64,000 nucleotides of DNA, taken from assembly GCA_029838195.1 (NCBI GenBank), contig JALGVJ010000004.1, positions 1 to 64,000 on the forward strand, read 5' to 3'. The first letter of the stretch is position 1, and each line of letters begins with the position of its first letter. The notes beneath the pieces are model-generated. The model was not told the origin of the DNA. It saw nothing but the letters and a program-made list of their open reading frames with translations, and did not search any database. A program made the position numbers and the translations under genes. The DNA comes from Promethearchaeota archaeon (lineage in GTDB: Archaea > Asgardarchaeota > Lokiarchaeia > Sigyniarchaeales > SOKP01). Shown here piece by piece: positions 1,857 to 8,218 of the stretch.

Positions 1857-4358
1857 ATGAGCCTCAAGGAATTTTCTAAGGAGATTTTTACTCGATATGG
1901 ATTAAATGACCAGCAAATTCGGATATACTTGGGTTATTTAAGAGTTCCACGCGCAACGCCCAGTCAAGTCTATTTAATGTTTTCGGAGGAAGATGGTATT
2001 GATTATGAAACCGTCGTGGAAACGACTAATTTTTTGGAAGAAAAGGGATTTCTTAAAAAAATTGAGGGTGCAATTTCGGGACTAAATAGGTACATTCCGC
2101 TTGAACCTTATTTTGAATTATTCGTGAATGAATCGGCTGGATTTAGAGAGGAAATTGCTAAGATTAAAGACGACATCTTAATCGAGCAATCGACTCAATT
2201 TTCCCGCTTAGACGAGGTCCAACAAGAAAAAGTGGGAGAAATTGATTCGACAGTAAGAACTCAAATAAGCGAATTTTTCAAGGATGCGGATAATAAGAAT
2301 GCAGAAGTGAAAAATATCCTTAAGGAAAAAAATGATTTCTTTTCCGCCACGAATAAAACTATCGAAAATAAGCTTCATAAAAACTTGGAAAATACACATT
2401 CCGAACTGAAGGGAGATATTCAAGGTTTAGATACGGAATTAAGTTCCATTTCGGAGACCCACAAGAATTCATTAAAATCATTAGAACAAAAATTACATGA
2501 GGTAAAAGATCTCTTAAATGCGGATTTAAAAAATATATCGAAAGCCTTTGTCGAGGAAAATGAGAAGGAGATTAATTCTGCTAAAGAGGGCATCTCCAAT
2601 ATGGTTGCAGAAATGTTGAAGGATTTTAATGAGCGCACTAAGGATTTAGAGATTGAATTAAAGAAGAATTTAGAGGAGCACGTGGAGAGGCATGCGAGTA
2701 TCGCTAATGAATTAAAACCGCAAATGGAGCAGATTCTTGATAAATATTTGGAGCGCATGGAGAAAATCGTTACGGATTTAAAAAAGCAAATCTCTAAGCT
2801 CTTGAAAACTCATGAAAATCAAATTCAAAATTTCACGAATGCATTAGAAACCAATTTAAAAGCCAAGATTGAAAAACGGCACGAAATCTTGGTAGAGCAA
2901 ACCACTAATTTTAAAAATACTACTTTACGATTAATCGATAATTTGTTGGAACATGCAAACCGTTTCACGGATTTTTCTGAAGATATGGCAAAAAAAGGCT
3001 TTTTCTGGATTGGTAAGAAGCAAAAATATAAAGAAAGAAATGAAGGCGTGATTCGGGATGTACTCACCTATACAAAACCCATGCGTGAATCGTTTACCAC
3101 GGAATGCAATGAATACATGGATCAAACAAGGGCTACCAATAGTGAATTGAAAAATGAAATATCCACCACCTTATCAACTGAAAATGAAAAAATTTTCAAG
3201 GAAACGGAACAATTAAATGACGATGCTCAAAGATCCATTGAAGCTCAATTAGAGATCTTGGCTACAGACATGGCTTCGGAAATAGATACCACGCTTCAAA
3301 AAGGCGTAAAAGATTGTTCTGATACCACCGTTAAATTAAAAGATTCCCTCGAAAGTACCCTTTCGCAGTACAATAAGCAACATGGCGAAGAAATGAGACG
3401 ACATGAAGAAACCACTTTAAGGCATTATACTAATTTTGATAAAGATATTAAAATTAAAAATGAAGATTGGGTTAAAGATGCAGGTGTTAAATTTTCCGCA
3501 GGAAAGAAGGATGTCTCTAACCTCGTGGAATCCATCATCAGTGATATTGATAATTTTATTTCTAAGCGGAAAAAAGTGGAAGAAGAACGATTAAAAAAGA
3601 TACGCACGGATTTTGATGATTCAAAAGCGTTTGTAACAGAAAACATTAATTCACAAATTACCACGTGGAATGAAGCCTCTGCAGACATGGAATCTCAGCT
3701 CGAGAATCTTTTAAATGCCCATAAAACAACATGCCAAGAAAATGCTAGCACTCTCCAGAAGCAATTAACTGAAACGATAGGTAGCACGATTAATGCTGAA
3801 AAAGACATCTTTTCCGATTTTAATGCAAATTTTATCAAGGCAATCAATGACGCAACAGATATTGCAGAAACCAATGAAGAAAAATTAAAAGAAATCTATC
3901 GTGCGTCTGCGGCAATAGAAGAACCCACAAAAATTACCACCTGGCATACGGTGGGAATGAAAGCATTAATTTCTAACATAAAAGACATGATTTATCGCGT
4001 GAAATCCTCTATTATCATCGTTCTACCTGAAGTTATCCCCGAAATTCTTAAATTCGTATCTGAAATTGCTTATCAAAAGAAGGCGGCACGCTTCATGCTC
4101 ACGAGCAATTTTGATCTAAGCGTGTATGGTCCCATTCTTAATAAAATGAAACTCTTAGGCAACATTCAATTTCGCCAATTAGGAACACCCGGAGAATATT
4201 ATGCTGTAACCAGAGATGCTGAAGAAGTCATCATTGCCCCAGCAACTAAAGATGAAGCTCAACTCATTAGCATGGTATCCACTCAAGAATCCTATGCAAA
4301 ATTATATGCTCAATTCATCGGACCTATTTTTACTGCGAATAGTAGGCCAATCAGATGA
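1857..4358 (+). CDS. TrmB-like wHTH + ~600-aa coiled coil + TrmB C-terminal (PLD-fold-like) domain protein
   Basis: N-term YGLNDQQIRIYLGYL..ATPSQV..LEEKGFLKK..RYIPLEP (TrmB wHTH pattern); long E/K/L heptad region; C-term IKDMIYRVKSSIIIVLP...AVTRDAEEVIIAP. Confidence 0.7.
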   Translation: MSLKEFSKEIFTRYGLNDQQIRIYLGYLRVPRATPSQVYLMFSEEDGIDYETVVETTNFLEEKGFLKKIEGAISGLNRYIPLEPYFELFVNESAGFREEIAKIKDDILIEQSTQFSRLDEVQQEKVGEIDSTVRTQISEFFKDADNKNAEVKNILKEKNDFFSATNKTIENKLHKNLENTHSELKGDIQGLDTELSSISETHKNSLKSLEQKLHEVKDLLNADLKNISKAFVEENEKEINSAKEGISNMVAEMLKDFNERTKDLEIELKKNLEEHVERHASIANELKPQMEQILDKYLERMEKIVTDLKKQISKLLKTHENQIQNFTNALETNLKAKIEKRHEILVEQTTNFKNTTLRLIDNLLEHANRFTDFSEDMAKKGFFWIGKKQKYKERNEGVIRDVLTYTKPMRESFTTECNEYMDQTRATNSELKNEISTTLSTENEKIFKETEQLNDDAQRSIEAQLEILATDMASEIDTTLQKGVKDCSDTTVKLKDSLESTLSQYNKQHGEEMRRHEETTLRHYTNFDKDIKIKNEDWVKDAGVKFSAGKKDVSNLVESIISDIDNFISKRKKVEEERLKKIRTDFDDSKAFVTENINSQITTWNEASADMESQLENLLNAHKTTCQENASTLQKQLTETIGSTINAEKDIFSDFNANFIKAINDATDIAETNEEKLKEIYRASAAIEEPTKITTWHTVGMKALISNIKDMIYRVKSSIIIVLPEVIPEILKFVSEIAYQKKAARFMLTSNFDLSVYGPILNKMKLLGNIQFRQLGTPGEYYAVTRDAEEVIIAPATKDEAQLISMVSTQESYAKLYAQFIGPIFTANSRPIR

Positions 4359-4509: not shown

Positions 4510-5787
4510 TTAATCCCATGTGGGCTTGACTGAGAGGTCGTCATCCTCCGAGTGAATTCTCTTTAGGTCAATGTCACTATAACCAGGTAATGTATTCAGC
4601 AATAATCTCATGGCATTTTCAATGTCTTTGGAAGAAGTCACGAATCTTCCAACGATTAGGATGTCAGCCTTCATATCGAGAGCATATTTTGCAGTTCTAT
4701 GGTCAATTCCTCCCGCTACGCCCACCAACACTCGATCTCTTCCGGAAACGAGTTTTAAATCCTTGTAGAATTCCTTAATTTTTGAAATGTTTTTCCATTG
4801 CACTTTTTGAGCTTCATCAGAATCCGCATTTCCAATTTCCACGTCGATCGCCCTATGAAGGATGATTACATTAGGAATTTGTTTTAACTGTTTTAATTTT
4901 TCAATGGGATCGTCAAGTTCCATGGTATCAATGAAAGCATAAATGCCCAATCGCTGCGCTTCGAGAATAAATTTGTCGAGTGATTTTGGAGAGGCTAATC
5001 CACTTGCGACTACGGCATCTGCTGTAGCATCAAAGGCAAAATCGACTTCTAATTTACCAACATCAAGTGTTTTCAAATCTGCCACGATGAATTTGTCTTT
5101 GGCTAATTCACGAATCTCACTTATGGCTTCCATGCCATATTTTTTGAGGAACGGTGTTCCGATTTCTAAAATGATGCGGTCGCTTTTAGGTAGTTGCTTG
5201 ACAACTTTTTTTTGGTGTTCCATGGAAGGATGATCTAGCGCAACTTGAATATAAGGAGGTCTCCATAGCCTTGGTACTCGCAAACCTGCCACGGGGTGTT
5301 TGGCCCGATCCTTATCATAAAAGATTTTCTCAATGGGAGGATATTTAGTTAATGCTCTTTTAATGGCCAATTTTGTGGCACCGTAATTATATTGATATAT
5401 TTTTCTATAATCATTGGCTTCCGGATGAATGAATACACTGGCAATGATTACCCATTCTTCAAGCTTGTCAAGAGGAATGATTCCCTCTTCTACAGCATCT
5501 GCAACACCCTTGGCAACAGCGGCTTGGGCCGGTCCAAATATTTTATTAGCATCCTCCATTTTTGAAATGGTTACTTTTGGGATGATGAGAGTATAAGGTT
5601 TCGAAATTAAGTTTGGTCGAATGCACGAGAGGAGGCCTCCGTGTCCCGTGCTAGGCGTGGAAATGCTATTAGCAAAAGAAATGCCAACGGGGCCATTTTT
5701 AGAACCGATTATCAAGTCAACGTGAGCTAAATTACATCCCTCTCCTATCAAGGCTTCTCCCACGTAATACTCCGCAGAGTCCATCAT
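4510..5787 (-). CDS. fae-hps: Bifunctional formaldehyde-activating enzyme / 3-hexulose-6-phosphate synthase
   Basis: GEALIGEG..AHVDLIIG and FGPAQAAVAKGVAD (Fae); QVALD, ILEIGTP, ADLKTLDVG, VAGG (Hps). ATG 5787 preferred over GTG 5796. Confidence 0.93.
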   Translation of the reverse strand: MMDSAEYYVGEALIGEGCNLAHVDLIIGSKNGPVGISFANSISTPSTGHGGLLSCIRPNLISKPYTLIIPKVTISKMEDANKIFGPAQAAVAKGVADAVEEGIIPLDKLEEWVIIASVFIHPEANDYRKIYQYNYGATKLAIKRALTKYPPIEKIFYDKDRAKHPVAGLRVPRLWRPPYIQVALDHPSMEHQKKVVKQLPKSDRIILEIGTPFLKKYGMEAISEIRELAKDKFIVADLKTLDVGKLEVDFAFDATADAVVASGLASPKSLDKFILEAQRLGIYAFIDTMELDDPIEKLKQLKQIPNVIILHRAIDVEIGNADSDEAQKVQWKNISKIKEFYKDLKLVSGRDRVLVGVAGGIDHRTAKYALDMKADILIVGRFVTSSKDIENAMRLLLNTLPGYSDIDLKRIHSEDDDLSVKPTWD

Positions 5788-6017
5788 GATAAACACGTAT
5801 TTATTTTTACAATTATTATAATTTTTATTACTTTATAATTTTCATTCATTAAGGCATTTTGATAAAAACATGTATTCCATGTTAAATATAAAAATATTTA
5901 GTTATTAAGATTTCCATATTTTCTATTTGATTATTATAATTTTTCACGAAGATTAAACATTCATTTTATAGTCCATTATTAAATTTTTTCACGAAAACAA
6001 GATCTTCTCAAAAATTC

Positions 6018-7370
6018 TTATTGAGGTGAGTAGTATTGTTCAATTTTTTTTACCTCTTTCTTTATTTCTAAGAGATCTGCATGAGTAAGCGTGTTAGTCT
6101 CAAAGATCACGTGTTCACAATCATATTTCCTGAAATTTTTTTCTATAATTTTAATTCCAAACTCCTTTTTTTCATTCCATAATCTCGAACCAGGATAAGG
6201 CGTAGCGAGGAAAAAATTAACTTTATCTTCTTTTGTCAAGGGAAGGGATTTAAGAAAATGGAGCGTTTCTTTAAGCGTATCTTTTGTTTCTCCTGGTAAA
6301 CCTACCACGAAATATGCTTGAATGGGAAGCTCGTGTTTTTTTAATAAAATTATTCCTTTTTTAACTTTTTGAGGGTCTTGCTTTTTCAAATTCATTTCTA
6401 ATACGGTTTTGCTTGCGGATTCGATGCCCGTTGCGATTAACTTGCAACCCGCTTTTTTCAACAATTTTACTTGAGGTTCGGTTAATTTGTCGACTCGTAA
6501 TTCGCATCCCCATGGAATGTTAAATTGATTCGTAATAAACATGTTGCAAAATGCTGTAAAAAAATCATTAGAAATGTTCAAATTATCATAGAAATTAATG
6601 TATTCATAAGTTTGCATGGATAATATATCTCTTATCTCAGCTTCAAGGGAGGAAATGCTTCTCAGTCTCACCCGATTCTTAAATAATTTTTGTCTGGTAC
6701 AAAAGGAGCATTGATAAGGACAGCCACGATTAACAATGACATTTGCCACGGTGTAAAAATAATTTTCCGGTTCTAACTTGTATCTTGCGGGTAGGGGTAA
6801 GGAATCCATATCAATTGTTTCATTAGAAAATCCAGTAAAAACGATCTTATTCTTGTCGCCCACGAAGGCCAGCCCCTTAATTTTATTTATCTTTTCTTTA
6901 AATTTTTGGAACATGGTTTTATAATTTGGCATGGAAAGTAGCAGTTTTGATAATTTCAAGAAGGAATATTCTGCCTCTCCAATACATATAAAATCTATTA
7001 TACCTCGATTTCCTCCAAATTGACGCAAGATTTGTTCATGTTGAAAAGAAGCATGGGGGCCTCCTAAAATAACGATTTTTTCCGGATGGTGGGATTTAAT
7101 AGTTCGTGCGATATTAATAGCTAAGTGAAATGTATTTGTTAAGCACGTGATACCAATGATGTGGTATTTTCTTGTTTTTTCTTTGATCAACTCATTTAGA
7201 GAGTTTATCTCAACGGTTCGATATTGCTCCAAATCTAATATATCCACGGGAATATCACGGGAATCGAGAATGGCTGCCAAGTATAAGAGCCCCAAGTTCG
7301 GTTCTCGAACGCAAACCTCTTTTTTGCTGTGATTCTTGCATGTTTTGGGGTTGATTAATAAAATCATCAT
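6018..7370 (-). CDS. Cobalamin-binding radical SAM protein (class B methylase-like)
   Basis: PNLGLLYLAA, LGGPHAS, GEAE (B12-binding domain); RGCPYQCSFC; GIESAS; VGLPGET; TPYPGS. Confidence 0.9.
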   Translation of the reverse strand: MMILLINPKTCKNHSKKEVCVREPNLGLLYLAAILDSRDIPVDILDLEQYRTVEINSLNELIKEKTRKYHIIGITCLTNTFHLAINIARTIKSHHPEKIVILGGPHASFQHEQILRQFGGNRGIIDFICIGEAEYSFLKLSKLLLSMPNYKTMFQKFKEKINKIKGLAFVGDKNKIVFTGFSNETIDMDSLPLPARYKLEPENYFYTVANVIVNRGCPYQCSFCTRQKLFKNRVRLRSISSLEAEIRDILSMQTYEYINFYDNLNISNDFFTAFCNMFITNQFNIPWGCELRVDKLTEPQVKLLKKAGCKLIATGIESASKTVLEMNLKKQDPQKVKKGIILLKKHELPIQAYFVVGLPGETKDTLKETLHFLKSLPLTKEDKVNFFLATPYPGSRLWNEKKEFGIKIIEKNFRKYDCEHVIFETNTLTHADLLEIKKEVKKIEQYYSPQ

Positions 7371-8218
7371 TCATTTTCTTTTTTCGAAGATTTAATCTTA
7401 TTAAATAATTCCATTCGCTCTTGCTCTTCTACAGTAAATTCTGGAGGCGGCATGTGAAACGCTTCTAATAAAGAATTAAAATCTTGTTCCTTGGAAAATT
7501 TTTCTTCCTTATTAATGGGGATTTCTAATTCTAAAGGAGGAGGGATTCCTTCTTTTTTAATAAAGAGTTCGATAGCTTCAATTTTATTATTTTTTATTAA
7601 AATCCGAGTTGAATAATTTTGGTCATCAAAAAAGGTAAAGCCGTTATTTAATCTCCCTAATTTTTCCAGTTTTTTAATTAGTTTTTCCTCTTTAACGAAA
7701 TTTTTAAATATTTCTTCTTCAGAATGGATGGCACCTCCCATTATTATAAATGTTCTTATCATGTTTTCGGGAATGGGTAATTCTTGTAGTTGTTGTACAA
7801 TTTTTTGCATGTTTGAGCTTTTAAAAATGGTTAAATAAGGAGGATTCATTCGCAATTGATCTAAATCTCCAAAATCTTCTTTTTTAATATCTCGTGCTCT
7901 GCCTTTACCAATTTTGTTATTGATGATTTCAAGGAATTTTGGATCTTTTTCTGAAAGCGTGTTTAAAAAATATACTCTATAAAAGAGTTTTAATTGATTT
8001 CTTAATCTATTAGCCAATAACGCACCAAATACTTGAAGCTTGATGGAACTTCCGGGTCCATTCCATATCCAGATTCTTTTCATGATATGGTCAACAATCA
8101 GAAACACTTTTTCTTTTCCTTTTTCCATGATGACATCCTTGATGTATAACCCTTCTAATACCTCTCTGGTTTCCATGTAAGGATATTGGTCAATTTCGTG
8201 AACTTCAAAAACTTGCAT
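7367..8218 (-). CDS. Gelsolin-domain protein (Asgard 1DGelX-like)
   Basis: KVFLIVDHIMKRIWIWNGPGSS gelsolin core motif, followed by a second beta-rich domain (GFTFFDDQNYSTRILIKNNKIEAIELF). Confidence 0.7.
   Translation of the reverse strand: MQVFEVHEIDQYPYMETREVLEGLYIKDVIMEKGKEKVFLIVDHIMKRIWIWNGPGSSIKLQVFGALLANRLRNQLKLFYRVYFLNTLSEKDPKFLEIINNKIGKGRARDIKKEDFGDLDQLRMNPPYLTIFKSSNMQKIVQQLQELPIPENMIRTFIIMGGAIHSEEEIFKNFVKEEKLIKKLEKLGRLNNGFTFFDDQNYSTRILIKNNKIEAIELFIKKEGIPPPLELEIPINKEEKFSKEQDFNSLLEAFHMPPPEFTVEEQERMELFNKIKSSKKENE

Follow-up and report, generated by a model that had tools for sequence, protein, structure and literature searches.

The closest described relatives of the protein studied here are TrmB and TrmBL2. 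TrmBL2 of Thermococcales (PDB entries 5bpd, 5box, 5bpi, and 5bqt) has 264 amino acids (aa), arranged as a winged helix-turn-helix (wHTH) with a basic recognition helix, one short linking helix, and a phospholipase D (PLD)-like C-domain of ~140 aa. It lacks a sugar-binding barrel, and the titles of entries 5bpd and 5box describe it as a chromatin protein. TrmB of Pyrococcus and Thermococcus (3qph and 2f5t) has a sugar-binding C-subdomain (from residue ~245) and no long rod. Here, we analyzed a gene at positions 1857 to 4358 of the forward strand of contig JALGVJ010000004.1 (assembly GCA_029838195.1, from a Promethearchaeota archaeon), of which the first 64,000 nucleotides (nt) are called the window throughout. 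Its product, referred to below as the rod protein, shares the order of elements with TrmBL2, but in place of the short helix it has a fold-back rod of 603 residues that bears a tip and a His/Cys cluster, and its wHTH is acidic. Compared with TrmB the situation is reversed: the long rod is present and the sugar-binding subdomain is not.

No closer relatives of eukaryotes are known than the Asgard archaea, whose cellular organization is little understood. In the literature, we found no paper describing the rod family, nor any match for Lokiarch_28300; a preprint from 2026 gives only a family total for the "TrmBL" proteins of Asgard proteomes. An earlier reading of the window (the original prediction) had described the gene product as a TrmB-like protein split by a giant coiled coil with an aromatic-basic tip at the midpoint, and had proposed a DNA-membrane tether. 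Our analysis confirmed the observation and partly supported the interpretation.

Results

Architecture of the rod protein

We modeled the 833-aa protein with AlphaFold2 from a 54-sequence alignment, which gave a mean predicted local distance difference test (pLDDT) score of 72 and a predicted template modeling (pTM) score of 0.36. The model consists of a wHTH (residues 1–81), a helix (84–379), a loop (380–387), a second helix (388–686), and an α/β domain (695–831) with pLDDT values of 81–89 up to residue 830. The tip loop lies at the midpoint (residue 385) of the 603-residue helical part. The open reading frame (ORF) and the model together bear out the coordinates and domain positions of the original prediction. 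The start of the protein, MSLKEF, is the conserved N terminus among its homologues, and the closest public protein, labeled Promethearchaeota, is 90% identical. An architecture made up of a TrmBL2-type head, a hendecad fold-back rod, an aromatic-polybasic tip, and a His/Cys site is close to certain.

The head is of TrmB ancestry

In a direct scan, the wHTH of the single sequence scored 17.9 bits against Pfam PF01978 (cut-off 25.6). A profile built from the first 100 residues of the family matched TrmB (3qph) with an E value of 1.9e-9 and TrmBL2 (5bpd) with an E value of 1.1e-7 over positions 1–95. These matches extend across the wing and the conserved proline into the beginning of the next helix. 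Together with the modeled fold, they agree with the TrmB-like wHTH that had been placed at residues ~1–90. At the level of fold, many wHTH proteins matched at Z 9–11.

The assignment of residues ~695–833 to a TrmB/PLD-like C-domain also held. TrmB, already the best sequence match of the wHTH, was the best structural match of this domain (2f5t, Z 18.3, root mean square deviation (rmsd) 2.0 Å over 131 aa; 3qph, Z 17.7), with PLD-type nucleases ranking below it (Z 11–15), and TrmBL2 was the top Foldseek match (E 7e-8). The alignment to TrmB was restricted to TrmB residues 110–243. The rod protein stops at residue 833 and lacks the sugar-binding β-barrel C-subdomain of TrmB, so that its head resembles TrmBL2 in composition. 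A motif search of the rod protein found no HKD motif (HxKxxxxD, phospholipase D/Nuc), and His-697 of the C-domain is variable across homologues (W-H/P/Q). Instead of the short single helix (~30 aa) between TrmB domains, the model has the two long helices; compared as a whole with TrmBL2, it keeps the same order of elements at an rmsd of 11–33 Å.

The recognition helix of the rod protein, DYETVVETTNFLEEKGF, contains Lys-63 as its sole basic residue. Alignment of the recognition-helix regions of TrmBL2 (PRTYDVLRSLEKKGF), TrmB (NRVYDTISSLKLRGF), and the rod protein (ETVVETTNFLEEKGF) showed T, V, V, N, and E in the rod protein at the places where TrmBL2 has R, T, Y, R, and K, and the charge around helix 3 is −7. 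The net charge of the wHTH is −3 in the rod protein and ranges from −2 to −8 in all 54 aligned family members. Basic residues are still present in helix 2 and the wing (Arg-32, Lys-67, Lys-68, and Arg-78). In a genome-wide search with the Pfam TrmB model, the rod protein scored 21.7 bits, compared with 40–71 bits for the canonical TrmB-like genes of 270–354 aa in the same genome. A classical DNA-reading role of the head is unlikely judging from these residues, and weak backbone binding by the leftover basic residues may occur.

The rod is an antiparallel hairpin with matched arms

The two arms of the rod vary in length together. In the close family, they measure 256/269, 296/309, 318/331, or 340/353 residues. 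We measured stalk lengths between four conserved anchor points in 131 full-length homologues, which fall into at least eight length classes. From the head to the His/Cys site described below, the N-terminal stalk spans 149–295 aa and the C-terminal stalk 169–319 aa (r 0.9995, slope 1.03). All length variation lies in these stalks, and the segment that runs from the His/Cys site through the tip and back is steady at 212–216 residues. The two blocks missing in the 751-aa class are exact mirrors of each other (170+592 = 209+553 = 762).

An initial covariation run was confounded by paired gap blocks, its parallel control being equally high, and was rerun without those columns. Mutual information along anti-diagonals then peaked at i+j = 761–773. 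The ten top anti-diagonals of 205 offsets all fell at i+j = 755–773, whereas parallel offsets were scattered. We regard the covariation as supporting evidence, not as proof.

Helical hairpins of known structure could be superposed on parts of the model, and the aligned ranges are centered symmetrically on residues 382–385. Among solved structures, the distal rod was matched best by Maxi, the hyperactive type I antifreeze protein of winter flounder (4ke2; model residues 280–484, 196 residues, rmsd 3.9 Å). This is a likeness of shape only: identity is 8%, the function is unrelated, and the Z score of 10.5 lies in the caution zone for helical models. The other hairpins were 1jad (286–477) and the cytoplasmic hairpin of a chemoreceptor (3g67; 275–489). 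Chemoreceptors are built from heptads and act as obligate four-helix-bundle dimers in membrane arrays with CheA/CheW signaling, and we found no sequence relationship between them and the rod protein. Their length classes reportedly differ by symmetric indels in both arms (Alexander and Zhulin, PNAS 2007), and our reading of the arm lengths follows the same reasoning.

The antiparallel fold-back is very well supported, and the indel blocks, the covariation, and the AlphaFold hairpin all give the register i+j = 762–770. The structure prediction and the matched, mirrored arms thus agree with the hairpin topology first proposed, which brings both end domains back to one end of the rod, where the two TrmB halves would be reunited. 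At 0.15 nm per residue, the 296 residues give an estimated rod length of ~44 nm, in line with the earlier figures of ~300 residues and roughly 45 nm. The corresponding estimates are ~38 nm for the common 751-aa class and ~60 nm for the 1050-aa class. As to a possible oligomeric state, a complex prediction with two copies of residues 250–515 gave a score of 0.35 and a mark of 0.42 (controls, 0.00), and we used it neither for nor against any arrangement.

The rod follows a hendecad repeat

The rod had been described as ~600 aa of heptad-rich helix. The ~600 helical residues stand, but the repeat is the hendecad (11/3) and not the heptad. In the family-averaged hydrophobicity, spectral power at 11/3 was 36 in the N arm and 26 in the C arm, compared with 1.1 and 3.3 at 3.5, and the best period was 3.66 in nearly all 66-residue windows of the rod. 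When the sequence is written in rows of 11, hydrophobic residues keep to the same three columns down each arm, and the phase is constant over the whole arm. The 22-residue indel unit corresponds to two hendecads. Hydrophobic residues make up 27% and occupy 3–4 of 11 positions, forming a narrow stripe, and the arms are acidic (−14 and −20, with −28 for the whole protein). Helices with hendecad repeats pack almost straight, and Maxi is an 11-residue-repeat helical hairpin.

A conserved His/Cys site lies within the rod

A second special point emerged within the rod, so the tip is not its one conspicuous break, as had been thought. His-275 (123 of 124 sequences), His-279 (124 of 124), Asp-486 (121 of 124), and Cys-487 (123 of 124) are nearly invariant, and the two histidines belong to HVERH, the only HxxxH in the rod protein. 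His-279 and Cys-487 occupy core slots of the hendecad rows, His-275 sits beside a core slot, and in the hairpin register the histidines lie opposite Asp-486–Cys-487 (275+487 = 762; 279+487 = 766), ~108 residues (roughly 16 nm) from the tip. The invariant Pro-288 and Gly-483 flank the site, and AlphaFold2 confidence dips on both arms there. Conservation reaches 0.78 and 0.80 in the two site segments, the highest values in the protein (wHTH, 0.71; C-domain, 0.76).

In a sister clade, Asp-486 is replaced by histidine, which gives His3Cys. In one homologue (P0123), three of the four residues (His-275, Asp-486, and Cys-487) have been lost together. This site is new here and was not part of the original prediction; the nature and placing of its residues suggest that it is probably a metal clasp of the zinc type that would fix the register of the arms.

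The tip is aromatic and polybasic

The motif KKGFFWIGKKQKYK was found where it had been reported, at residues 379–392 (nt 2991–3032), and a check of its conservation showed the aromatic-basic tip to be near-invariant in the close family. In the 54-sequence alignment, Gly-381, Gly-386, Lys-387, Lys-388, Lys-390, Tyr-391, and Lys-392 are conserved at 90% or more, and positions 382–384 are always F, L, I, or W. The tip carries a net charge of +4 to +8; the other positive part of the protein is the C-domain (+5 here, −1 to +7 across the family). On the Wimley-White scale, GFFWI is the most interface-seeking 5-mer of the rod protein (−4.4 kcal/mol). With this composition, a role of the tip as a peripheral membrane anchor is plausible.

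In the sister clade, which includes the 1050-aa proteins, the tip is also aromatic and basic but reads differently (KRGSAWKALFxGKHK). Within the same order, two genomes that are each complete in a single contig (4.4 and 6.0 Mb) encode open frames of ~1050 aa that belong to this clade and have the tip KRGSAWKALLFGKHK. The cultured Asgard species appear to possess a version of this length. In more distant relatives, aromatic-basic patches were chosen by eye near the midpoint and are suggestive only. Clusters of Gly and Pro at the midpoint were tried as a tip locator in distant relatives of 750–1900 aa and were too noisy to count.

Natural mini forms lack most of the rod

Two short homologues, P0132 (323 aa, labeled Sigynarchaeota) and P0296 (315 aa), retain the regions corresponding to residues 1–121/134 and 639/641–833 of the rod protein. 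Their hairpin has been excised at mirrored points (121+639 = 760), leaving one of ~40+50 residues. The predicted fold of the 323-aa form comprises the wHTH, a short hairpin, and the C-domain (pLDDT 83, pTM 0.57); 253 of 263 TrmBL2 residues align to it in the same order, at an rmsd of 33 Å. The genomic reality of P0132 rests on one nr entry and on the existence of the second, 315-aa protein.

Distribution and genomic context

The rod family is Asgard-wide. Every available label among the 334 matches of a close-family search is Asgard, and an exhaustive profile search returned 345 proteins, including relatives labeled Jord-, Thor-, Hel-, Freya-, and Sigyn-. Some sources label homologues "sugar-specific transcriptional regulator TrmB." Both end domains are present in 49 of the 150 best-scoring proteins, with inserts of ~80–1690 aa. 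A family match occurs in 304 of 400 genomes of the phylum, in 77 of 90 high-quality genomes, and in 124 of 134 genomes of the family to which the window belongs.

The same genome encodes a distant paralogue of 714 aa (contig C50, 34294–36438, forward strand), which matches the family profile at positions 4–209 only (E 4e-13). An N-terminal extension with Cys precedes its TrmB-like wHTH; ~280 helical residues and a C-domain of TrmB type follow, and the tail is rich in Pro and Lys.

We examined 12 loci of close homologues, which are closely related and mostly from one genus. An uncharacterized, divergently oriented neighbor of 239 aa is present in 10 of them; in the window, whose G+C content is 31–40%, an M24 peptidase takes its place. 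Downstream of the rod gene lies a convergent gene (4510–5796, reverse strand) for a bifunctional Fae/Hps, the formaldehyde-activating enzyme fused to 3-hexulose-6-phosphate synthase (NCBIfam NF009833, E 1.9e-161), a neighbor common to only 1 of the 12 loci. Within 6018–8218 (reverse strand), a 283-aa ORF with a weak Gelsolin-repeat match (E 1.1e-3, below the cut-off) overlaps the start of a B12-binding radical SAM gene by 4 nt. An antisense open frame inside the rod gene (2067–2453, reverse strand) recurs in nine loci and is most simply explained as a by-product of the conserved purine-rich sense strand, not as a gene. The features of the rod gene are collected in Table 1.

Table 1. Positions of the rod gene and its parts within the window
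Feature	Position (nt)	Strand	Basis or remark
Whole gene, 833 aa plus stop	1857–4358	+	Open ORF; one copy in genome
TrmB-type wHTH (aa 1–84)	1857–2108	+	Profile, AlphaFold2, fold comparison
N arm, one continuous helix (aa 84–379), hendecad (11/3)	2106–2993	+	Periodicity, AlphaFold2
N-arm block (aa 170–209), missing in 751-aa class	2364–2483	+	Mirror of aa 553–592
HVERH (H275, H279), invariant HxxxH; proposed N-arm half of metal clasp	2679–2693	+	Conservation, hendecad rows
Tip KKGFFWIGKKQKYKER (aa 379–394): hydrophobic-aromatic loop, polybasic flank, turn of the chain	2991–3038	+	AlphaFold2, conservation, composition
C arm, one continuous helix (aa 388–686), hendecad, antiparallel to N arm	3018–3914	+	Periodicity, AlphaFold2, covariation
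GVKDCSDT (G483, D486, C487, T490), invariant; proposed C-arm half of clasp	3303–3326	+	Conservation, hendecad rows
C-arm block (aa 553–592), missing in 751-aa class	3513–3632	+	Mirror of aa 170–209
TrmB/TrmBL2-type C-domain, PLD-like fold (aa 692–833)	3930–4355	+	AlphaFold2, structure matches

Discussion

Taken as a whole, our best explanation is that the rod protein is an Asgard-specific descendant of TrmB/TrmBL2 that would form a clasped fold-back rod and act as a tether or spacer of fixed length; we put its chances at about even. In this view, the short linker helix of a TrmB-type ancestor has grown into two helices of ~296 and ~299 residues, which lie antiparallel as a straight hendecad hairpin ~44 nm long. 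Both TrmB-type domains together make up a head at one end of the rod, and the opposite end presents the conserved loop with its aromatic core (GFFWxG) and polybasic collar. A putative zinc-type clasp would lock the arms in register. Rod length evolves only between head and clasp, through equal insertions in both arms. The tip may dock on a negatively charged surface, for which the cytoplasmic side of the cell membrane is the likeliest candidate, and the head would hold a partner ~38–60 nm away, at a distance that depends on the lineage. Either a protein or DNA could be this partner; DNA would be held weakly and with no sequence specificity.

Several points weigh against this explanation. The DNA end of such a tether is doubtful, because the wHTH has a net negative charge and no longer carries the basic residues that TrmBL2 has in its recognition helix. 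At the other end, nucleic acid or a protein would be an equally possible ligand of an aromatic-basic loop. The tip of the mini forms is not aromatic-basic, and the head evidently can exist without such a tip. The covariation draws on ~29 effective sequences, and the mirrored conservation profile (r 0.77) is a modest gain over the best parallel control (r 0.69). Finally, the neighborhood is not conserved between genera, and the gene context provides no functional hint.

The tether may also be read in the stricter sense of the original prediction, with the wHTH binding chromosomal DNA non-specifically and the tip inserting into the membrane at a spacing of ~44 nm. The head descends from TrmB/TrmBL2, the latter a chromatin protein; its wHTH fold has been kept and conserved, basic residues are retained in helix 2 and the wing, and the tip is both hydrophobic and polybasic. 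We nevertheless consider this version rather unlikely, as the acidity of the wHTH across the whole alignment, the negatively charged recognition-helix region with its replaced TrmBL2 residues, and a Pfam TrmB score well under those of the canonical genes in the same genome all weaken the DNA half of the proposal. In Bacillus subtilis, RacA and Noc join a DNA-binding domain to a coiled coil or to an amphipathic membrane-targeting element and serve as anchors between DNA and the membrane or pole. They are functional analogues of a tether but have different folds, no fold-back rod, and basic DNA-binding domains that demonstrably bind DNA.

SMC, Rad50, and MukB likewise possess a long intramolecular antiparallel coiled coil with matched strands that runs from a head to a special apex. 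An organizer of this shape without an ATPase, whose heads would dimerize as in TrmB and whose tips would either attach to DNA or RNA or associate with one another, could bridge nucleic acid segments tens of nanometers apart. The long arm with its matched lengths, the tip as the main basic patch (the C-domain aside), and a His/Cys cluster reminiscent of the Rad50 zinc hook would fit such a role; the cohesin elbow entry 7ogt aligns over residues 90–680 of the model, but at an rmsd of 44 Å. We find the proposal quite improbable. The SMC-type proteins have an ABC ATPase head, a hinge or a CxxC apex hook, and irregular heptads, whereas the rod protein has none of these and follows a hendecad. A regular-expression search of the rod protein found no Walker A, Walker B, or CxxC motif, and its Pfam and NCBIfam matches include no ATPase family, so the earlier statement that it is not an SMC holds. 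In addition, the His/Cys cluster lies 108 residues off the apex and faces the partner arm rather than outward. Aromatic cores such as FFW typically go with insertion into an interface rather than with binding to duplex DNA.

A coat on lipid surfaces, of the apolipoprotein, phasin, or LEA type, would require the 11-mer amphipathic helices to open flat on lipid or on a droplet, with the hairpin as a storage form. The 11-residue periodicity fits, and residues 212–366 match Pfam Apolipoprotein A1/A4/E (PF01442, E 2.6e-9), with further matches to ApoA-IV (3s84, E 0.045) and a phasin (5ip0, Z 8.9). However, the PF01442 score of 37.5 bits stands against a cut-off of 90, the likeness being one of 11-residue periodicity only, and a Z of 8.9 falls in the stated noise of the tool for helical models. 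The hydrophobic stripe is narrow and the arms are strongly acidic, and the co-varying arm lengths and mirrored covariation show arm-arm pairing to be the selected state; we consider a coat very improbable. An ordinary ligand-sensing TrmB-type transcription factor with an unusually long dimerization coiled coil is also highly unlikely: both TrmB domains are present and some database labels say as much, but the sugar-binding subdomain is absent, the recognition helix is acidic, there is no conserved neighboring regulon, and rod, tip, and clasp are conserved at least as much as the end domains.

To return to the tether or spacer of fixed length, a bolder form of it, which we regard as distinctly unlikely, is that the family constitutes a near-universal, ATPase-less, metal-clasped Asgard ruler, tuned in length by lineage from ~38 to 60 nm (plus the mini forms) through mirrored indels, that would set the spacing between the membrane, to which the aromatic-polybasic tip would bind, and a chromatin or cytoskeletal partner, which a repurposed TrmB head would hold. 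Should this be true, the rod proteins would foreshadow in prokaryotes, by function alone, the tethers with which eukaryotes place chromatin or organelles with respect to membranes.

The rod protein is among the longest predicted rigid elements in Asgard proteomes, and its transcription-factor scaffold is unexpected. The matched evolution of its arms, together with the putative internal metal clasp, offers a clean natural example of how register may be kept in long hairpin rods. The mini forms would serve as natural head-only constructs. If the tip attaches to the membrane and either chromatin or a filament is bound by the head, the rod protein would be a tether of defined length, which could be tested in cultured species.

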